In this document: one piece after another, positions 2 through 64,000 of the stretch
Layout of the letters: every line of letters begins with the position of its first letter
Position numbering within the stretch: the stretch's first letter is position 1
DNA from: an uncultured Gammaproteobacteria bacterium
GTDB taxonomy: Bacteria > Patescibacteriota > Patescibacteriia > Patescibacteriales > WJLG01
DNA length: 64,000 nt
Reading direction: 5' to 3'
NCBI GenBank assembly: GCA_964547855.1
Contig: CAZJPG010000005.1
Coordinates: 3,445 to 67,444 of the forward strand
The notes under the pieces: model-generated
Databases searched by the model: none
What the model was told of the DNA's origin: nothing
The model's input: the letters and a program-made list of their open reading frames with translations, nothing else
Program-made: the position numbers and the translations under genes

Positions 2-190
2 GTAGACAATGACATAGACACCATAAAACTCGTAACGACCGATGGCGTAAAAGTATATTTCAATACCGCCCAAAATTTAAATAACCAAATAGAAAAATTA
101 TTACTGCTCAAAAGAGAAAAATTAAAAGATGACTTTGGGTCAAAAAAATATATAGACCTAAGATTTGGCGATAAAATTTATTTTCAATAA
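2..190 (+). CDS. 3' fragment of an FtsQ/DivIB-like cell-division protein (start lies upstream of the window)
   Basis: Frame open from window edge to TAA 188-190. Tail ...DGVKVYFNTAQNLNNQIEKLLLLKREKLKDDFGSKKYIDLRFGDKIYFQ* resembles the conserved FtsQ C-terminus (iDLRf..k.y). Truncated, so absent from the ORF track. Confidence 0.4.
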   Translation, partial: VDNDIDTIKLVTTDGVKVYFNTAQNLNNQIEKLLLLKREKLKDDFGSKKYIDLRFGDKIYFQ

Positions 191-196
191 AAAAAT

Positions 197-355
197 ATGA
201 GCAACAAAGATGTCGAGAAAGTTTTTAAATTCATCTTCGGCTTAGCGGTTGTGGTTTTTTGTTTGGTCATAATCGGATTATTTCTGCTGCTGGTAAAATT
301 CTCTCTAAACTTCACTGACACTATACGCATTTTAGGTGTCACTATGACCAATTAA
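197..355 (+). CDS. small hypothetical membrane protein (52 aa)
   Basis: ATG 197 lies 7 nt after the upstream stop. MSNKDVEKVFKFIFGLAVVVFCLVIIGLFLLLVKFSLNF... has one clear TM helix. Below the ORF-track length cut-off. Confidence 0.3.
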   Translation: MSNKDVEKVFKFIFGLAVVVFCLVIIGLFLLLVKFSLNFTDTIRILGVTMTN

Positions 356-717
356 GCGGCTAGCGGTTAAAATTTTTTCTCTTTTGGGTATAAATACACC
401 CAAAACCAATTAAAACTCATCCTAGGGCATTTTAGAGGCTCTTATGCTAAAATTTAGCTTATTTTAGCCATTTTTTGTTAAAATTAGCCAAACAAGTAAA
501 AGCCAATAAAAGACAAAAACAATACCTGGATCAAAAACAGGAAAAAAGAGAAAATAATCGAGAAACATAAAGAATGAAAGATAGAAGCCAAGAATGCTGA
601 CACTAACGAAATAAAATAAAAAAATAAAAATCATAAAAACATACAGCAGGATCAAGGAAGGGAGAAAACACGAAAAAACAAAAAAGGCCCAAAAAGGCCT
701 ATTTTAATTGATACAGT

Positions 718-745
718 ACTTCGCTTAATCTACATTATGCGAAGT
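718..745. promoter_or_regulatory. dif-like Xer recombination site candidate (11-6-11)
   Basis: ACTTCGCTTAA-TCTACA-TTATGCGAAGT sits inside a perfect 15-bp inverted repeat (710-724 / 739-753). Arms resemble B. subtilis dif ACTTCCTAGAA-TATATA-TTATGTAAACT and E. coli dif GGTGCGCATAA-TGTATA-TTATGTTAAAT. Located about 450 bp from the xer gene. Confidence 0.4.
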
Positions 746-838
746 ACTGTATCACAAAGAAAGGGTGGCTAGTTTATCAATTAAACCTCCACCCTCTTTA
801 AATCTTTTAGAAAAAATTCATGGGTCATGGATCGTGAA

Positions 839-1072
839 TCAGCTGGTCGTGATATTATGACTCAAAACAAAAAAAACTCCACAACAAGTTACAACCCCCC
901 TGTCGAAGCATACAAGATCTTTAGGGGTCATTTTTGTTATTTCGCTTTTCTCTTGATGATTTTTTAATTTTTCAAAAGAAACCTTAATAATAAAAACAAC
1001 CATAGCTATAAGCGCGACAGCTAAAAGCAATAAGGGTATAGCCTCCATCGAACTTAAACCCCTATTATTCAT
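839..1072 (-). CDS. hypothetical small membrane protein (77 aa)
   Basis: ORF track. One TM helix (AIPLLLLAVALIAMVVFII). GAGGGTG SD-like motif upstream. Hairpin AGGGTGG...CCACCCT (763-798) downstream. Confidence 0.4.
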   Translation of the reverse strand: MNNRGLSSMEAIPLLLLAVALIAMVVFIIKVSFEKLKNHQEKSEITKMTPKDLVCFDRGVVTCCGVFFVLSHNITTS

Positions 1073-1162
1073 ATAACACCCTCTTTCTAAAAAATAGATG
1101 AAATTATAATGAGCTAAAAAAATATAACATCTTTAATATTTTCTGTCAATAATAATAAATTA

Positions 1163-1197
1163 TTTAAATACTTCGCATAATATTGTATAATGATCAC
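1163..1197 (+). promoter_or_regulatory. putative xer promoter with extended -10; probably a leaderless mRNA; overlaps a copy of the dif-like half-site
   Basis: TGTATAAT at 1184-1191. ATG 1198 is 7 nt after the -10, with no room for an SD. TACTTCGCATAAT (1169-1181) is the reverse complement of 734-746. Confidence 0.3.
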
Positions 1198-2157
1198 ATG
1201 ACCCAAAAACCAATAATAAAATATTTAACGGATTTTTTAGACCACGCCGAAATAGAAAAAGGACTCTCTCCTAAGACCCAGGAGAATTACTCGCGATTCC
1301 TTAATAAGTTTTTCAAATGGCTTGAAGAGAACAATCTTTCCAAGTTAACACCAGACAAGCTTACCACGGATCATATCTGGAAATACCGAGTATTCCTCTC
1401 TCGACACATCGACCCGCTTAAAAAGGCGCCGCTTAAAAAATCAACGCAAAACTACTATTTAATAGCTTTGCGAAGTCTTTTGGAATTCTTCGTCGAAAAG
1501 AATATAGAATGCCTGCCGCCAACGAAAATAAAACTTGCCAAAGACAAATCCGACCACGAGGTCAAATTTCTTACCCTGCCGCAACTAGAAAGACTCTTGT
1601 CGTCCCCAGACACGTCAGATGTCAAAGGATTGCGCGATAAAGCCATCTTGGAATCATTCTTCTCCACCGGACTTCGTATCAGTGAACTATCATCGCTTGA
1701 CCGTGAACAACTTAAGGTCAAAAAAGACACTAAGGAACTGGAAATAGCGGTCGTAGGAAAGGGATCGAAGGTTAGGACCGTCTACTTCAGCGAACGCGCC
1801 GTAGAAGCCCTAAGAAAGTACCTAGACAAGCGCACAGACATCGACAATGCCTTATTCATCAACTATAAACCAGGAATAGAAAAGACCTCCTCCCCTCGCC
1901 GCCTTACAAATCGCGCCATAGAAGATATTGTCAAAAAATACGTTAAAATATCCGGCTTACCGGTCATGGCCACTCCACACACCCTGCGCCACTCTTTTGC
2001 CACTGATCTACTATCCCATGGCGTAGACCTAAGGATCGTTCAGGAATTCTTGGGACACCGCAATATAGCCACGACACAGATATACACCCATGTTACCAAT
2101 AAACAATTACGTGACATACACAGACAAGCCCATGGCGGAAAAGAGCTAAAAGAGTGA
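1198..2157 (+). CDS. site-specific tyrosine recombinase, XerC/XerD family
   Basis: N-terminal SAM-like core-binding domain. C-terminal catalytic motifs ...GLRISELSSL..., HTLRHSFATDLLSHGVDLRIVQEFLGHRNIATTQIYTHV. Start moved from TTG 1183 to ATG 1198. Confidence 0.92.
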   Translation: MTQKPIIKYLTDFLDHAEIEKGLSPKTQENYSRFLNKFFKWLEENNLSKLTPDKLTTDHIWKYRVFLSRHIDPLKKAPLKKSTQNYYLIALRSLLEFFVEKNIECLPPTKIKLAKDKSDHEVKFLTLPQLERLLSSPDTSDVKGLRDKAILESFFSTGLRISELSSLDREQLKVKKDTKELEIAVVGKGSKVRTVYFSERAVEALRKYLDKRTDIDNALFINYKPGIEKTSSPRRLTNRAIEDIVKKYVKISGLPVMATPHTLRHSFATDLLSHGVDLRIVQEFLGHRNIATTQIYTHVTNKQLRDIHRQAHGGKELKE

Positions 2158-2212
2158 TAATTCTCCCCTTTTCACGATTTGACATTATAAAAAATCAATG
2201 TTACTATACAAT

Positions 2213-2247
2213 GACCTGCCGAAAAATCGGACAGGTCTTTGCTTTTT
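2213..2247 (+). terminator. rho-independent terminator after xer
   Basis: GACCTGCC-GAAAAATC-GGACAGGTC followed by TTTGCTTTTT. Confidence 0.5.
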
Positions 2248-2279
2248 AAAACCAAATCTTTCTTTTTAGGAGGCACTCT

Positions 2280-2804
2280 ATGGAAACAATTGGTAATGTT
2301 TCAGAGGGTACAGAAAACAAAGCACAGACAACCAGCTGGATAAAATCCGGCTGCGCCTGTGGATTTATTCTAAACGATAAAAAATTGAGAGAAATGTCGG
2401 CGAACATAAGCCGGGCTATGGTAATGAACCTATCACCAGAAATGCGCGCCATAATAATGGCAACCTCCATCATCCATCAAGACAATTTCCTTGATATCTG
2501 CCGCATGGTAATGGTCGCCAACGAATCCGGCAGGATCGACAACACAGAATGCTATGCAAAAGTACTTCGATTGATGCACGCCCAAATACAAGACAAAAAA
2601 ACCAGAACGAAAATAATACAAGCTCTGTCATTGCTTCCAAGCAACGTCATCATGGGCGTATATATCAGCGTATTCGAAGAAAAACATGATGCCACAAACA
2701 AGAAAAATTTTCTTGGCCGCAAAGAGGCCGATGATTTTCTCGAAGACTGTCTTCCCTTGATAACCGGCAAAAGTATTCCTCAAAAAGAATTGTGTACAGC
2801 TTAA
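2280..2804 (+). CDS. hypothetical protein (174 aa), orphan
   Basis: Strong SD (TAGGAGGCACTCT-ATG). No motif recognised. Several shadow ORFs in other frames indicate locally higher GC. Confidence 0.65.
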   Translation: METIGNVSEGTENKAQTTSWIKSGCACGFILNDKKLREMSANISRAMVMNLSPEMRAIIMATSIIHQDNFLDICRMVMVANESGRIDNTECYAKVLRLMHAQIQDKKTRTKIIQALSLLPSNVIMGVYISVFEEKHDATNKKNFLGRKEADDFLEDCLPLITGKSIPQKELCTA

Positions 2805-2830
2805 AGTGGCGCCATAAAATCGCTCCACAC

Positions 2831-2862
2831 AAAAACGACCCCGTTCAAAAGGGTCGTTTTTT
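2831..2862. terminator. bidirectional terminator between convergent genes
   Basis: AAACGACCC-GTTCAAAA-GGGTCGTTT, flanked by an A-run and a T-run. Confidence 0.6.
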
Positions 2863-2882
2863 AATATCTTCACTATAAAATA

Positions 2883-3290
2883 TCAGTTTCCAGGAGTAGT
2901 CTGTTCCGGTGATACTGTTCCGTTTTGTTGCTGGGCCGCAGACATCTCAAGTTGCTTTTGATAGGCCGCCTCCTGATCCTTTCTGAAGTTATACGCCCTT
3001 ATGGAGTCGTATATACTAAAGATGGAACAAAGTAAAAGTATCACCGAGAAAAAAGCGCCCCAACCTTTTTTGAATATTAAAAGGCCAAGCGACGCCAAAA
3101 TAGATGCCAAAACAGTGAATATGGCCAATTGATAAAGGAAATTAAGCATCCAAATAACAAATCCAGAGGCAGAGATCGAGATGCTAACTATAACGATTAT
3201 CAACGCGATGCCAATAACTATCAACTGCCAAAAAGCGAAATCCACATATTCAGAATCCCCGCTCGATGTTCTAGAGAATTTATTTTCCAT
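2883..3290 (-). CDS. hypothetical integral membrane protein (135 aa)
   Basis: Three to four hydrophobic helices; Q/E-rich C-terminal tail. Confidence 0.6.
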   Translation of the reverse strand: MENKFSRTSSGDSEYVDFAFWQLIVIGIALIIVIVSISISASGFVIWMLNFLYQLAIFTVLASILASLGLLIFKKGWGAFFSVILLLCSIFSIYDSIRAYNFRKDQEAAYQKQLEMSAAQQQNGTVSPEQTTPGN

Positions 3291-5707: not shown

Positions 5708-7396
5708 CTATTTCTTTGACTTTTTACCCTTAGCTTTAAGACTTAAACAGACCTTAACGAATTCCACGAATAAAGGATGTGGCGAAAGCGGTCTTGATAT
5801 GTATTCTGGATGAAATTGCGTGCCAATGAAGAATGGGTGCTTAGTGATCTCTATTGCCTCGACTATGCGTCCATCCGGAGAAGTGCCGGCGATAGTAAGA
5901 CCTTTCTTTTCCATCTCCTCTCGATATTCATTGTTGAACTCATAGCGATGGCGATGACGTTCATAGACTATCTCTGGGGCCTTGCCGTCCTTGCCCATCT
6001 TGGCATAAGCCTTCTGCATATGAGTCCCTGGTTTTATCTCACAAGGCCATCCACCCAAGCGGATCGTTCCTCCAAATTGCTTCTTAGCTATTAACTCGGC
6101 CTGTTCCGGCATCACATGGATCACTGGATGCTTGGTCTTTGGATCGACTTCGGCGGAGTTGGCATCTTTATAACCAAGAACATCGCGAGCGAATTCTATG
6201 GCAGCCATCTGCATACCATAACAAAGCCCAAAATATGGTTTGTTATTACGGCGGCAATAGTCTATGGTTTCGATCTTGCCCTCACTGCCACGAGAACCCC
6301 ATCCTTGAGGGACGATTATTCCATCGAATTGCTTTAAAAATGAAGTTCCTTTCTTTTCTACATCCTCTGAAGAAAGCCAGTGTAAAGTAGCCTTACAACC
6401 ATTATAAGTTGCGGCATGTTTGATCGCCTCTATGACCGAAACATAAGAGTCCGTAAAACAGAATTGACCGCTCATAAAGTATTTTCCAACTATACCAATA
6501 TCGACTTCTTTCTTGGCAGCCCTTCTCTTGTCAGTCATAGCCTGCCAATCTTTTAGATCATCCTTCTTTTTCTTTAATCCGAATTTGGCCAACAAACGAT
6601 CGCCAAGATGATCCTTTTCAAAATTCAATGGCACATCATAAACCGACTCGATGTCCGGAGCGGAAATAACATCCTCCGGCATAATACCGCAATTCATGGC
6701 TATCTTAGATCGACGCGGTTCATCGACTGGGACATCGGCACGGGCCACTATGAAATCTGGTTGAATACCAGCGGCATTCAAGGAACGTATGGCATACTGC
6801 GTCGGTTTAGTCTTCATCTCCCCTATCTTATTAGGTATAGGCAGATAAGACACCATGACAAATTGAACATTCTTCGGATTGTACAATTTCATCATTCTGG
6901 CCGCCTCAAGGAAAAGAAGGTTTTGATACTCACCGACAGTTCCTCCGATCTCTATGACCATGATCTCGGCGCCACTCTTCTTAACGGCTCGATGGATACG
7001 GTCGATAACTTCCAATGGGATGTGTGGAACGACCTCGACGCAACGACCACCATACTCCAAATTTCGTTCTTTCTGAATGACCGACTGATAGACGCGTCCA
7101 GTGGTCATGTAATTCTCACGATAGATATTCTTATTGAGGAAACGTTCATAATTGCCGACATCTTGATCGGTCTCATCACCATCTTCGGTGACAAAAACCT
7201 CTCCATGCTCCACCGGATTCATAGTTCCAGCATCGACATTTATGTATGGATCGATCTTGATCGCACTGACATTGTACCCCTTACCCTGCAAAATCGTAGC
7301 GATCGATGAAGTTGTGATGCCTTTGCCGACGCCGGACATTACGCCGCCCACCACGAACACATACTTAGTTTTGTCCTTTTTGATTTCCTCAACCAT
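5708..7396 (-). CDS. pyrG: CTP synthase
   Basis: N-terminal synthetase domain (KYVFVVGGVMSGVGKGITTSS), C-terminal GATase (GLCYGMQ...HRHRYEFN...FHPE). Confidence 0.97.
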   Translation of the reverse strand: MVEEIKKDKTKYVFVVGGVMSGVGKGITTSSIATILQGKGYNVSAIKIDPYINVDAGTMNPVEHGEVFVTEDGDETDQDVGNYERFLNKNIYRENYMTTGRVYQSVIQKERNLEYGGRCVEVVPHIPLEVIDRIHRAVKKSGAEIMVIEIGGTVGEYQNLLFLEAARMMKLYNPKNVQFVMVSYLPIPNKIGEMKTKPTQYAIRSLNAAGIQPDFIVARADVPVDEPRRSKIAMNCGIMPEDVISAPDIESVYDVPLNFEKDHLGDRLLAKFGLKKKKDDLKDWQAMTDKRRAAKKEVDIGIVGKYFMSGQFCFTDSYVSVIEAIKHAATYNGCKATLHWLSSEDVEKKGTSFLKQFDGIIVPQGWGSRGSEGKIETIDYCRRNNKPYFGLCYGMQMAAIEFARDVLGYKDANSAEVDPKTKHPVIHVMPEQAELIAKKQFGGTIRLGGWPCEIKPGTHMQKAYAKMGKDGKAPEIVYERHRHRYEFNNEYREEMEKKGLTIAGTSPDGRIVEAIEITKHPFFIGTQFHPEYISRPLSPHPLFVEFVKVCLSLKAKGKKSKK

Positions 7397-38101: not shown

Positions 38102-39592
38102 TTGAAAAACCTTATTTCCATTGAGCAGTTCTCTGCCAATGAATTATTCAACGTCATCGTGCCAGGGTGTATCGAAATGATACCAAGGGCACGTAAAATG
38201 CAGAGCGGTAAACACAAGTTGCCTGATTTTCGGGAAAGAAAACTAACCATCTTTTCAGTCGAACCTTCGACTAGAACCATCGACTCCTACATGGAAGCCT
38301 CTGGACTTCTTGGCTGGTCAGACCATCGCAGTCCACCACCAGACAACACCTCACTCATGAAAAGTGAGAGTTGGGCGGAAACTGCTAGAACCTGGGCCAT
38401 TCAAGGCGCTGGTGTGATAGCCATGCGAACCAAGATCGAAGGCGTTCAAAAGTTTCTAGCGAAGATACTAGAAGAAAAAGGCTTCAATGTTTCCATTCAA
38501 AATTGCGGCGACGGAGAACATGAGCATCCTAGCCAATGCATATTGGACTTAGTCACTATCAAACAAGAAAAGGGACGACTCGAAAATTTAACCATAGGCT
38601 TTTTAGGAGACCTCCGTTTCGGAAGAACCGTACACTCCTTAGTCAAAGCATTGTCATTGAGCAAAGGAATATCGTTAAGACTAGTATCCGCGCCTGAAAT
38701 GTCTCTGCCACGGCATTATTTAAAAAATTTCAAAGGAGAGGTCAAACAAAGCGAGGATCTTAAAATCCTGTCGGACTGTGACGTCATCTATGCCACCCGC
38801 ATTCAGGTCGAACGCTTCCCACCCGAAGTTCAATATGCGATAGCGAGAGCTAAAGAAAAATATCGAATAACGGAAGAAGTTTTAAAGGTGTTCAAGCCTG
38901 ACGCCATCATAATGCACCCCCTGCCCCATGCCAATGGATTTTCTCCAATGGCGATTAGGGATAAGCGCGTGGTAATACATAAACAATCGTGGTACGGGAT
39001 CCCGACCAGAATGTACTTGCTCAACAGAGGCTATATCAATCGCTTCCGAAAAGAATCACCGATACTAAGCTTGCCAAAAGGCAGTATGAAGACGATTCTG
39101 CATAAAGACCTTAAAGAATACTTGGAGGAAAAAAGTTCAAGAAATAAGGCTAGAAGATACTTTTCTCCGATCGACAATGGTACGGTGATAGATCATTTGC
39201 CGCGAGGATTCGGAGCAAAGATCAGGGAAGCCCTTGGAAAAGCCGGTCTTTTCGGAGAAGACAGTGTTCGACACACTATCGAGGATGTCCCATCGAAGAG
39301 AATGGGAAAAAAAGACGTCTTAGTACTTGATGGTGTATTCCTAAGCAAGGAAATGATGATCTCGATCGCCTCTTTCGCCGAAGGCGTGACTATTAACGTC
39401 ATTAAAGATGGCCGTTTTCGAAAATTAATCCTGGGAAAGCCGGGACGAATCGAAAATATCGGCCACTACCCGAACGATAACTGTATCACCAGACACGACC
39501 CGGAGGCATTCCCAATTTTTCTGCGCGTCGGTAACGGAGACGTAGAGTGCCACTACTGTGGACGCTCTTTCAAGAATAGTGAAATAAACTGA
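38102..39592 (+). CDS. pyrBI: aspartate carbamoyltransferase catalytic chain fused to regulatory chain (PyrB-PyrI fusion)
   Basis: TTG start with a GGGGGA SD. PyrB motifs SVEPSTRT, HEHPSQ, GDLRFGRT, IMHPLP. C-terminal PyrI motifs IDNGTVIDHLP and Zn-domain ...PNDNCITRHDPE...VECHYCGRSF. Confidence 0.85.
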   Translation: MKNLISIEQFSANELFNVIVPGCIEMIPRARKMQSGKHKLPDFRERKLTIFSVEPSTRTIDSYMEASGLLGWSDHRSPPPDNTSLMKSESWAETARTWAIQGAGVIAMRTKIEGVQKFLAKILEEKGFNVSIQNCGDGEHEHPSQCILDLVTIKQEKGRLENLTIGFLGDLRFGRTVHSLVKALSLSKGISLRLVSAPEMSLPRHYLKNFKGEVKQSEDLKILSDCDVIYATRIQVERFPPEVQYAIARAKEKYRITEEVLKVFKPDAIIMHPLPHANGFSPMAIRDKRVVIHKQSWYGIPTRMYLLNRGYINRFRKESPILSLPKGSMKTILHKDLKEYLEEKSSRNKARRYFSPIDNGTVIDHLPRGFGAKIREALGKAGLFGEDSVRHTIEDVPSKRMGKKDVLVLDGVFLSKEMMISIASFAEGVTINVIKDGRFRKLILGKPGRIENIGHYPNDNCITRHDPEAFPIFLRVGNGDVECHYCGRSFKNSEIN

Positions 39593-43804: not shown

Positions 43805-43990
43805 ATTAGGCAATTTGTTAACTTATGCACAAAAACTAAAATAGGAACTTTTAATCCCTTGTAGCTTATGTTATTATACAAAATCCAAGAGGCCTTGGCA
43901 AACTTTCATATTTGACAAAAAAACGGTCATTATCTATAATCTTAAAAGAGCAATAAGTGTTTTAAAAGCGCTTGTTTTTTTTAGAAAAAA

Positions 43991-44005
43991 GGGCGTGTGG
44001 CGGAA
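43991..44005 (+). repeat. 15-nt duplicate of the tRNA-Leu 5' end, fused to a pair of mutually exclusive hairpins
   Basis: GGGCGTGTGGCGGAA at 43991-44005 equals 44044-44058. It is followed by GGCGG-AAT-CCGCC (43999-44011) or AATCCGCC-CAA-GGCGGATT (44004-44022). Confidence 0.6.
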
Positions 44006-44043
44006 TCCGCCCAAGGCGGATTATATCTTTGCTCAAAAACTGC

Positions 44044-44127
44044 GGGCGTGTGGCGGAACTGGCAGACGCGCACGACTCAAAATCGTGTGGACGAAAGTCC
44101 ATGTGGGTTCGATTCCCACCATGCCCA
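44044..44127 (+). tRNA. tRNA-Leu (anticodon CAA), class II with long variable arm; CCA not encoded
   Basis: Hand-folded cloverleaf. Acceptor GGGCGTG/CATGCCC. Anticodon arm CACGA-CTCAAAA-TCGTG. Variable arm TGGAC-GAAA-GTCCA. T arm GTGGG-TTCGATT-CCCAC. Discriminator A. Confidence 0.9.
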
Positions 44128-44128
44128 C

Positions 44129-44168
44129 AAATAAAATAAGACCGGCTAATGCCGGTCTTATTTTATTT
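44129..44168. terminator. bidirectional terminator (18-bp perfect stem)
   Basis: AAATAAAATAAGACCGGC-TAAT-GCCGGTCTTATTTTATTT. Confidence 0.75.
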
Positions 44169-44275
44169 GTATCGCATAAATGGAAGGGAATCGAACCCTC
44201 CCGAGGCGGGCAAGCAAGTTGCGAGCGAGATACGAGGTGAGGCGGAAGCCGAGCCGAATAATCAAGCGACATCAA
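44169..44275 (-). ncRNA. unclassified structured element with a tRNA T-arm-like hairpin (copy A)
   Basis: Minus-sense GGGAGGG-TTCGATT-CCCTTCC (44182-44202). Long-range stem GTATC(T)CGC / GCGATAC (44225-44233 with 44169-44175). Framed by terminators. 33/41 identity over the core to 63953-63993. Confidence 0.3.
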
Positions 44276-44280
44276 TATTC

Positions 44281-44318
44281 AAAAAAACAAAAAAGGCCGA
44301 CCATTACTAGGCCAGCCT
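44281..44318 (-). terminator. rho-independent terminator of the 509-aa gene
   Basis: Minus sense AGGCTGGCC-TAGTAAT-GGTCGGCCT followed by TTTTTTGTTTTTTT. Confidence 0.6.
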
Positions 44319-55682: not shown

Positions 55683-57095
55683 ATGTTAAAACCCTTCAAA
55701 AAGATCGCCTTATCATCAATGATCCTCGTCGGGATCGTCTCCTATGGAATAGGAGCCTTTGCCCAAGACGAACCAGATCCTAACTTTAATCCAAGTTATA
55801 TAATAAGCGATGCCGAGATACTGGACTACAACTCCATGACCAAGGAGGAGATCCAGGCCTTCTTGGAATCCAAGGATAGTTATCTGGCCAACTATTCAGC
55901 CACTAACCCTTACACCGGCGAGACCGAGACCGTCGCCGAGATAATCTATGGGCGCTGTCAGGCCAACTTGATCAGTCCAAAGTTCGTCCTTGTCCTTTTA
56001 CAGAAAGAACAGGGGTTGATCGAGGACGAATCCCCTTCTCAAGGGTCCTTGGATTGGGCTACTGGCTACGGCTGTCCTGATGGCGGTGGTTGCAATGCCC
56101 GCTGGCAAGGCATCTGGAAACAGATCAATAGCGCTACGCTCCAATTCTACGATTATATAGAAAACCCGACCGATTACACCTACCAAAAAGATAAGACCTA
56201 TACTTTTAGCAATAAATACTCCACAACTATCCAGGGAAGTGTCTCTGTCACCCCTTATAACAACGCGACTGCCGCCCTCTACAACTACACCCCTCACGTC
56301 TTTAACGGCAACTATAACTTCTGGAAACTCTGGAGCAGATACTTTGCCAAGACCTATTACCCAAGCGGATCTTTGCTACAGGCTAAGGGCGAAGGCGGTG
56401 TTTGGCTCATTCAGGGTGGTCAAAAACGTCCTTTCACTTCCAAAAGCGCCCTCACTTCTCGCTTTGACGAAAACAAGATAATTCAGGTGGACAAGAGCGT
56501 CTTAGATAAATACTCGACCGGAGCGCCGATAAAATTCCCTAACTACTCTTTGATAAAATCCCCTCGCGGAACGATCTTCTTATTGGTCGATGGGAAAAAA
56601 AGAGGCTTTACATCCAGTGCAGTCTTTAAAACTTTCGGCTATAACCCAGAAGAGGTTATGAATGCCAGTTGGGAAGACATAAATTCCTATATCGACGGCG
56701 AACCGCTTTCCGCGACCTCGACCTATCCGATCGGCGCCTTGTTGCAGGACAAGACCACGGGTGGCGTTTACTGGGTCGAAGAAGGAATAAAATATCCGCT
56801 CCACGACAAAGCCTTGTTGACCTATAAATTCAAGAAAAAGAAGATCATCCCGACCGATCCAAAAGATCTTGAGGTCTATCCGACCGGAGCCCCGGTATTA
56901 TTCGGCGACGGAGAACTCATAACCTCATCAAATACCAAAGCTGTCTATTTGATAGATGAAGGCAAGAAGCGCCCATTCTTCTCTGGCGATGTATTCCTTA
57001 AACTTGGATACAAATGGGAGAACATCATCAGCGTCTCACCACAGTATTTGAATAAATACGAGATCGGAGAACCGATCAAAGAAAGCGACATTTAA
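55683..57095 (+). CDS. secreted hypothetical protein (470 aa) with four C-terminal ~45-aa repeats
   Basis: Signal peptide. Repeat pattern G.(V/I)(W/Y/F)L(I/V).(G/E)GKKRPF.S..VF...G(Y/F) occurs 4 times. Confidence 0.75.
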   Translation: MLKPFKKIALSSMILVGIVSYGIGAFAQDEPDPNFNPSYIISDAEILDYNSMTKEEIQAFLESKDSYLANYSATNPYTGETETVAEIIYGRCQANLISPKFVLVLLQKEQGLIEDESPSQGSLDWATGYGCPDGGGCNARWQGIWKQINSATLQFYDYIENPTDYTYQKDKTYTFSNKYSTTIQGSVSVTPYNNATAALYNYTPHVFNGNYNFWKLWSRYFAKTYYPSGSLLQAKGEGGVWLIQGGQKRPFTSKSALTSRFDENKIIQVDKSVLDKYSTGAPIKFPNYSLIKSPRGTIFLLVDGKKRGFTSSAVFKTFGYNPEEVMNASWEDINSYIDGEPLSATSTYPIGALLQDKTTGGVYWVEEGIKYPLHDKALLTYKFKKKKIIPTDPKDLEVYPTGAPVLFGDGELITSSNTKAVYLIDEGKKRPFFSGDVFLKLGYKWENIISVSPQYLNKYEIGEPIKESDI

Positions 57096-63855: not shown

Positions 63856-63895
63856 TAAACAAAAATCTCCGCTTTAAAGCGGAGATGATCTTTTT
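63856..63895. terminator. hairpin terminator (better T-run on the minus strand)
   Basis: ATCTCCGC-TTTAAA-GCGGAGAT (63865-63886). Minus-sense tail TTTTTGTTT; plus-sense tail GATCTTTTT. Confidence 0.55.
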
Positions 63896-63907
63896 AAGTT
63901 TGACGCA

Positions 63908-64000
63908 GTTGTCGCGGTCGTTCGGCGCCGGATTGCGCCTCGCTCCCTTGTCCAATTTGCTTGTCCGCCTTGGGCGGGTTCGACTCCCCACCTTGAATAA
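63908..64000 (+). ncRNA. unclassified structured element with a T-arm-like motif (copy B, truncated by the window edge)
   Basis: Homologous to 44181-44273 in inverted orientation. Hairpins GGCGC-CGGATT-GCGCC and TCCGCC-TTG-GGCGG(G); GGGTTCGACTCCC motif. Confidence 0.3.

Follow-up and report, generated by a model that had tools for sequence, protein, structure and literature searches.

A T-arm-like hairpin beside tRNA-Leu(CAA) of a Patescibacteria bacterium and its possible origin by recombination at the tRNA gene

A repeat between two terminators

Why does a hairpin with the T-loop sequence of a tRNA lie just beyond a tRNA-Leu(CAA) gene, on the opposite strand, in DNA that is no tRNA gene itself? 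We addressed this question for a stretch of 64,000 nt (64 kb, hereafter the window), the host segment of which is chromosomal DNA of a Patescibacteria (CPR) bacterium. A preliminary description had offered three readings of the hairpin-bearing element: a small-RNA family with a tRNA-like T arm, decayed class II tRNA pseudogenes, or footprints that an integrase left at tRNA genes. The minus strand carries, in this order, dnaE (49490-45927), a gene for a 509-aa protein (45853-44324; a Pfam scan found no family), terminator T1, the element itself (copy A) and terminator T2. Beyond these come tRNA-Leu(CAA) on the plus strand, convergent with copy A, and then parA, parB, miaB and miaA. The features of the locus are the following, L058, L059 and L081 being related genomes.

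44044-44128, plus strand: tRNA-Leu(CAA), found by ARAGORN and Rfam (56 bits); its 3' flank carries the insert
44127-44170, both strands: bidirectional terminator T2, a 44-nt palindrome (inverted repeat 91%) between tRNA-Leu and copy A
44169-44282, minus strand: copy A of the repeat, non-coding, homologous to copy B and to the L058 copies
44182-44202, minus strand: T-arm-like hairpin GGGAGGG-UUCGAUU-CCCUUCC, restricted to the copies of the window genome
44186-44198, minus strand: GGGTTCGATTCCC, 13 nt, an inverted repeat of the tRNA-Leu T-loop segment 44105-44117 (13 of 13 positions, 0 expected)
44197-44222, minus strand: hairpin-rich GCAACTTGCTTGCCCGCCTCGGGAGG, common to copies A and B, which gives the 5' strand of the 'T stem'
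44241-44250, minus strand: hairpin GGC-UUCC-GCC (plus strand GGC-GGAA-GCC), a motif also found in the elements of L058, L059 and L081
44283-44322, minus strand: terminator T1 of the 509-aa gene, abutting the 5' end of copy A

The described placement of copy A, between T1 (44322-44283) and the bidirectional terminator that follows tRNA-Leu (44127-44170), was borne out. Its G+C content is 55%, versus 33.5% in the adjoining intergenic DNA (43814-44043) and 42.6% in the window as a whole. The T-arm hairpin is likewise present as described: the minus strand at 44182-44202 reads GGGAGGG-TTCGATT-CCCTTCC, a 7-bp stem (one G-U pair) closed by the T-loop sequence. A second copy lies at the end of the window.

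63865-63886, both strands: bidirectional terminator-like hairpin just upstream of copy B, placed as T1 is at copy A
63901-64000, plus strand: copy B (B-type), beginning after the bidirectional hairpin and ending at the window end
63965-63977, plus strand: hairpin CCGCC-TTG-GGCGG in copy B
63976-63988, plus strand: T-loop-like GGGTTCGACTCCC in copy B

The reported match between the 41-nt core of copy A and 63953-63993 (33 of 41 positions, inverted orientation) was reproduced, and the homology claimed beyond this core extends over ∼110 nt with 73% column identity. Local alignment of the two copies gives z = 13, a score that none of 500 shuffles reached, and nhmmer returns an E-value of about 1e-4. 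In addition, GGGTTCGAYTCCC occurs exactly three times in 64 kb, namely in tRNA-Leu, copy A and copy B (0 expected). Among the neighbours of the two copies are dnaE, the 509-aa hypothetical gene, parA, parB, fmt and a gene for an FN3 protein; in the syntenic region of a further relative, L083, the FN3 gene and copy B are both absent.

A truncated third copy had been placed at 44007-44020, just upstream of tRNA-Leu. This turned out to be merely a 14-nt hairpin, TCCGCC-CAA-GGCGGA, identical to the copy B hairpin in inverted orientation; it is part of a distinct 38-nt leader insert and does not represent a truncated copy of the whole element.

43991-44043, plus strand: separate tRNA-Leu leader insert, a 15-nt direct repeat plus 38 nt that begin with the hairpin TCCGCC-CAA-GGCGGA

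The 15 nt at the 5' end of the tRNA stand on both sides of the leader insert as a perfect direct repeat (43991-44005 = 44044-44058). The hairpin of the insert is built from the tRNA's own GGCGGA and the complement of it, and the insert contains CTCAAAA, the anticodon-loop sequence of the tRNA. It is missing from L058, and a similar, longer version is found in L056 (7404-7461). Both sides of tRNA-Leu, 5' and 3', carry small inserts flanked by duplicated tRNA sequence.

Some other features of these contigs deserve mention in their own right. The only recombinase among the 40 ORFs of the window that were scanned is an Xer-like tyrosine recombinase at 1183-2157 (324 aa, Phage_integrase and SAM_1), 42 kb from copy A. 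A 496-aa ORF at 38102-39592 combines OTCace_N, OTCace, PyrI and PyrI_C, an apparent pyrB-pyrI fusion. The 470-aa protein encoded at 55683-57095 belongs to no Pfam family and is highly conserved in Patescibacteria (the best 120 of 3464 matches are 57-81% identical); in L083, Bro-N and RhuM-family (prophage-type) genes at 145-3172 adjoin this conserved gene.

Empty and filled sites in related genomes

Relatives were reached through homologues of the 509-aa protein, the contigs of which were then compared, since pattern scans gave no homologue. A scan of a genome collection with CCGCCNNGGGNGGGTTCRANTCC returned 42 matches and no homologue, those in RNA genes being the variable arm plus T arm of tRNA-Sec and the remainder bearing no resemblance to the element; a metagenome scan with TTGCTTGNCCGCCN8GTTCRANNC gave 12 chance matches in G+C-rich coding DNA, scans of viral contigs with different motifs gave chance matches only, and a phage BLAST gave no match. 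A tRNA-Sec gene in a Syntrophales MAG (L010, 1849-1946) has a copy of its variable arm and T arm ∼800 nt downstream, at 2733-2755, without the 3' end; this partial copy may mark a small tDNA insertion.

The order dnaE, 509-aa gene, tRNA-Leu, parA, parB, miaB is conserved among the relatives, and the site between the second and the third of these is found both empty and filled. In L077 and L078 a single bidirectional terminator stands after the stop codon of the 509-aa homologue, and tRNA-Leu comes directly after this terminator. L056 and L057 also have no element, though they are nearer to the window (69% protein identity) than the more distant carriers. Four genomes (the window, L058, L059 and L081) carry an element here, in the same place and the same orientation, and each has an extra terminator beside the tRNA; T2, which gives terminator-type matches in the Rfam scan, is seen at filled sites only. 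Presence and absence at orthologous sites (L077 and L056 being empty) and several copies per genome (two in the 64-kb window, 2.5 in L058) are what is expected of a mobile repeat. The slot is variable in its gene content as well. A gene for a 114-128-aa protein with no Pfam family lies on the opposite strand between the 509-aa gene and tRNA-Leu in L056 (6591-6977) and L058 (6078-6422) and is not in the window, while an AI-2E transporter gene fills the slot in other relatives, which marks the 3' flank of tRNA-Leu as a variable region.

The closest relative, L058 (81% protein identity, tRNA-Leu 100% identical), has two A-type copies (6676-6792 and 6905-6990) with a B-type piece between them. Copy A is 90% identical to the A-type copies over 41 nt. 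Inside the UUCC hairpin of copy 1 there is a perfect, loop-less 20-nt palindrome, CCTGCCTGCCGGCAGGCAGG (6716-6735). Apart from this palindrome the A-type copies do not differ over 73 nt (100% identity), which points to a recent duplication or to an assembly artefact; dnaE and the 509-aa gene are in fragments on this contig, suggesting frameshift errors. The B-type piece shares with copy B a sharp 5' boundary of 20 nt (63901-63920 = 6828-6847, 100%) in a different context. The hairpins of copy B and of this B-like piece stand at the same position and differ in sequence, both still being hairpins.

L059 and L081 are more distant (45% protein identity to the window) and both carry a 175-bp insert in the same place and orientation. 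Its order is T1, GTGGGCATGGAGAGAAATCGAAT, CGTCGCTGRCG, a UUCC-loop hairpin, a second hairpin, GTTCGATTCTCC, a new T2 and an intact tRNA-Leu. Here GTGGGCATGGAGAGAAATCGAAT corresponds to the final 22 nt of tRNA-Leu in reverse complement, with one extra base, and lies flush against T1, the original terminator. The displaced 23-nt fragment thus adjoins T1 in exactly the way in which, at empty sites, the true tRNA end adjoins the one terminator present. The two tRNA ends are direct repeats (L059, 8910-8932 versus 9085 on; L081, 6692-6714 versus 6867 on), perfect over 16 nt and matching at 22 of 23 positions overall. In the window the displaced fragment is at best a vestige (GAATATTGAT versus GAAATCGAAT).

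Between L059 and L081 the elements are 72% identical, whereas the spacer between the tRNA and parA is 48% identical, which is the level of shuffled sequence; the flanking proteins differ at 6-29% of residues. The displaced fragment is the same in both and the following 21 nt contain a single difference. An 11-bp closing helix joins the displaced fragment to the T-loop copy. The UUCC hairpin, whose loop on the tRNA strand is GGAA, of GNRA type, shows a compensatory change from C-G to U-A, and the second hairpin is kept with a different sequence. Folding z-scores (two values each) are –3.6 and –5.0 for L081, where both strands fold far better than shuffled sequence, and –1.8 and –2.2 for L059. 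The identity, the closing helix, the compensatory change and the folding of L081 indicate that the insert is either constrained, with some function, or was spread horizontally more recently than the genomes diverged.

Pairwise alignments between this family and that of the window and L058 are not significant (z = 1-3). The two are linked by position, orientation and short motifs (GGCTTCCGCC, CGCTC, GTTCGATTC) and may be homologous. The inverted ends amount to 11 bp in L059 and L081 and only to UGUCGC/GCGAUA in window copy A.

These data appear best explained if copy A belongs to a small, rapidly changing family of intergenic repeats, G+C-rich and with many hairpins, which occurs in a narrow clade of Patescibacteria. 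As to its origin, we tentatively favour, at somewhat less than an even chance, that copy A is a non-coding insertion module or repeat that arose from recombination at the 3' end of tRNA-Leu. The ∼110-bp copy A with its own bidirectional terminator (∼154 bp together) would have been inserted into the 3' flank of tRNA-Leu(CAA), the DNA entering by site-specific (integrase-type) recombination within the region from the T-loop to the 3' end. The incoming DNA would have brought its own tRNA 3' end and terminator, displacing the old 3' end, and its interior would later have been lost, or would never have contained genes. Later, palindrome-forming indels would have altered the remnant, and a copy of it would have reached at least one further locus, that of copy B. 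The conserved part of the 'T arm' is a 9-13-nt inverted copy of the T-loop segment of tRNA-Leu, which in the window genome alone was completed to a 7-bp hairpin by the insertion of a hairpin peculiar to this lineage; the element would have no present-day function.

Of the three readings offered in advance, integrase footprints are thus the best supported one, by the empty and filled sites and by an L059/L081 insert that is bounded by the regenerated tRNA-Leu end and the displaced 23-nt fragment. Features of a DNA-level kind, namely the loop-less palindrome of L058 and the B-type piece with its sharp 5' boundary in two contexts, are in line with this. Counting against insertion, there is no integrase or other gene inside the 154-175-bp insert, in which no ORF was found, and known islands are far larger than 175 bp. 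The faint vestige in the window, the non-significant alignments between the two families, the conservation between L059 and L081 and a 10/12 promoter match at L058 copy 1 also count against it. Moreover, the T-loop copy runs opposite to the tRNA, and a simple integration gives no inversion.

A neutral process that needs no recombinase could produce such an inversion: palindrome extension, or quasi-palindrome template switching, around the bidirectional terminator would copy the tRNA 3' end inverted across the terminator, where more hairpins accrete. The terminator palindrome at 44127-44170 does continue imperfectly outward to the two inverted copies of GGGTTCGATTCCC, and both L058 copy 1 and the hairpin of the tRNA leader (GGCGGA/TCCGCC) contain perfect palindromic insertions. 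We nevertheless find this origin very improbable, because it leaves unexplained both the 23 nt that are repeated directly at the far end of the L059 and L081 inserts and a second copy 20 kb off, and because the T-loop part is perfect yet the segment nearer the palindrome centre has diverged.

The T arm, tRNA-Leu and the case for an RNA gene

The T arm is not a property of the family. The T stem is imperfect in copy B and absent in the L058 copies (where the 5' strand, 19 nt, is missing), L059 and L081; in the alignment the counterpart of GCAACTTGCTTGCCCGCCTCGGGAGG in both L058 A-type copies is 7 nt long (a net 19-nt gap), and both keep only TGTTCGATTCCCC of the T-arm region. The arm sequence CGTCGCTGRCGCTCCTCTTTG adjoins the T-loop core. 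The T-loop segment of the element tracks the local tRNA: GGGTTCGATTCCC goes with the T arm GTGGG-TTCGATT-CCCAC in the window and L058, and GTTCGATTCTC with GAGAG-TTCGATT-CTCTC in L059 and L081. Judged from these comparisons, the T arm is a hairpin peculiar to one lineage that formed around a stretch copied from the adjacent tRNA-Leu gene. Because its T-arm look comes from this copied stretch, the element is most likely a recombination remnant and not a tRNA-like RNA gene.

How much more of tRNA-Leu is there in the element? The suggestion of a decayed class II tRNA pseudogene finds weak support. Similarity to tRNA-Leu is significant only over the T-loop and CCAT(G) (z = 4.8 for copy A and 3.6 for copy B), and outside the T-loop the k-mers shared with tRNA-Leu are at chance level; a 'patchwork of tRNA-Leu pieces' was rejected as the k-mer test found nothing else above chance. 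A decayed duplicate of tRNA-Leu, either a convergent copy with the terminator in common, from which the T-loop and CCAT(G) similarity would follow, or a tandem copy on the tRNA strand with its last 22 nt kept in L059 and L081, is in our view improbable. It can draw on antisense alignments of the L059 element with tRNA-Leu (z = 7.5, including GGCGGAA and CTCAAA blocks) and of copy B with the leader and the tRNA-Leu 5' half (collinear, z = 5.0), but these scores come almost entirely from the 22-nt end fragment and the 14-nt hairpin. Furthermore, the two orientations that it proposes exclude each other, a tRNA is shorter than the element, and the tRNA covariance model (RF00005) has no match on either strand of the element at E up to 10.

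The earlier statement that the element has no cloverleaf and fits no tmRNA or Rfam family held on both strands. ARAGORN, run on the window and on the loci of all relatives, found nothing on the elements, its match near copy A in the window being tRNA-Leu only. The sole permuted-tmRNA match (17 bits, plus strand) lies over the true T arm of tRNA-Leu and is far below threshold. Rfam 15, searched at gathering and at permissive thresholds with copies A and B and the L058 and L081 elements, gave only sub-threshold chance matches, mostly on the terminators.

Copy A shows no excess of fold stability over its shuffled versions (z = –0.9; 39 of 200 were as good), and the same is true of the L058 copies. 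The proposed closing stem with GUAUC(U)CGC could not be upheld, as the minimum-energy fold pairs the 5' UGUCGC instead and the alignment shows no conservation of the stem across the family. Divergent, overlapping promoters at 43873-43940 point to tRNA-Leu (TTGACA-17-TATAAT, 12/12) and to parA (TTGCCA-17-TATAAT, 11/12), and the same pair is present in L058, L059 and L081. For the element itself, no sigma-70 promoter was found on either strand in the window (A and B), L059 or L081, and terminators stand on both sides; a 10/12 match (TTGACG-17-TATATT) lies just upstream of L058 copy 1. Nor did inspection reveal a reading frame conserved between the copies in the window, L058, L059 and L081. A coding role was rejected as the frames of copy A and L058 are one base off, the 19-nt indel shifts the frame and the ORFs cross terminators; a 44-codon ORF of L081 stops after 12 codons in L059.

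For copy A, therefore, a small-RNA family with a tRNA-like T arm is not sustained: the T stem is lost in the three relatives, there is no promoter, the fold is at shuffled level and neither Rfam nor a Y-RNA-type match is seen. A broader form of the idea, a genuine structured non-coding RNA read in minus sense (through the terminator or from an L058-like promoter) or as a co-transcribed 3' spacer of tRNA-Leu, is the chief rival to an origin by insertion and still seems to us doubtful. Its core would be the closing helix with two or three hairpins, one of them with the GGAA (GNRA-type) loop in the tRNA orientation. The excess of identity between L059 and L081 over background speaks for it, as do their conserved closing helix and GGAA/UUCC hairpin with one compensatory pair beside a second, sequence-variable hairpin, their folding z-scores, the persistence of the B hairpin in L058 despite sequence change, and the promoter-like sequence of L058 copy 1. 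It has to contend with strong flanking terminators and no promoter in the other three genomes, with the folding of copy A and the L058 copies, and with a T arm and closing stem that are unconserved across the family. In addition, loop-less perfect palindromes point to DNA-level processes, the covariation comes from two informative sequences only, and the element is missing in close relatives.

Since the closing helix and the GGAA/UUCC hairpin of L059 and L081 are conserved at a level well above background, the element may have a structured role as RNA or DNA. In the corresponding minority reading, which we regard as unlikely, the element would be functional and conserved as structured RNA or ssDNA, with a closing helix formed by two copies of the T-loop and 3' end of tRNA-Leu. 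It would then be either a gene-less integrative mini-element, mobilised in trans into the tRNA-Leu genes of Patescibacteria, or a small RNA of the tRNA-Leu locus bearing a decoy or antisense copy of the tRNA 3' end.

Known systems and the meaning of the element

ERIC, Correia and REP/BIME are small intergenic or MITE-like palindromic repeats of bacteria. Like them, the element is ∼100-170 bp long, non-coding and hairpin-rich, lies between convergent genes near terminators, is patchy at orthologous sites with more than one copy per genome, and in L059 and L081 has 11-bp inverted ends. The ends of the element, however, come from the target tRNA gene and not from a terminal repeat recognised by a transposase; unlike for MITE-like repeats, no short target-site duplication can be identified for it and no partner transposase is known.

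Among RNAs, the 3'ETS-leuZ of E. coli is derived from the 3' external transcribed spacer of a tRNA. Our element also lies directly downstream of tRNA-Leu, and co-transcription is possible if the terminator is leaky, but a strong intrinsic terminator separates the two and there is no sequence relation. Other candidates, namely parS, dif, integron attC sites, IS200/605 ends and a retroelement primer-binding site, were set aside because neither matching motifs nor partner genes were seen.

The tRNA-mimicking YrlA RNAs are encoded next to the Ro60 (Rsr) gene, and their D- and T-like stem-loops are the two most conserved ones (PMC4201824). Copy A resembles YrlA in its length of ∼100 nt, its T-arm-like hairpin and a closing stem made from the 5' and 3' ends. 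It differs in that it has no D-like arm, its T stem is not conserved and Rfam gives no match; no Ro60/TROVE domain was found by Pfam in 40 of the 57 ORFs of at least 150 aa, all neighbours of copies A and B included.

The nearest parallel to an origin by insertion is provided by tDNA islands as catalogued by Islander. Such islands are recognised by a regenerated target and a displaced fragment at the two ends (PMC4383910). Like these islands, the element sits at a tRNA 3' end, supplies the sequence adjoining the tRNA including the terminator and varies in its presence, and in L059 and L081 it has an intact tRNA end on one side and, in direct orientation, a displaced fragment on the other. In contrast to them, it is 154-175 bp long with neither integrase nor cargo, contains an extra, inverted T-loop copy, appears conserved between two diverged genomes, has a paralogous copy B, and in the window leaves a displaced fragment that is barely recognisable.

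Should the minority reading be correct, a gene-less, tRNA-targeting unit of 175 bp would be an unusual mobile or regulatory element, and an RNA formed around a duplicated tRNA 3' end would be likewise unusual, in a group with very few described non-coding elements. If insertion at tRNA-Leu is the true origin, T-loop-like hairpins next to tRNA genes can be copies of the tRNA, for which annotation as tRNA-like RNAs would be unwarranted, and tRNA-Leu(CAA) would be a recombination hot spot in these small genomes of Patescibacteria.
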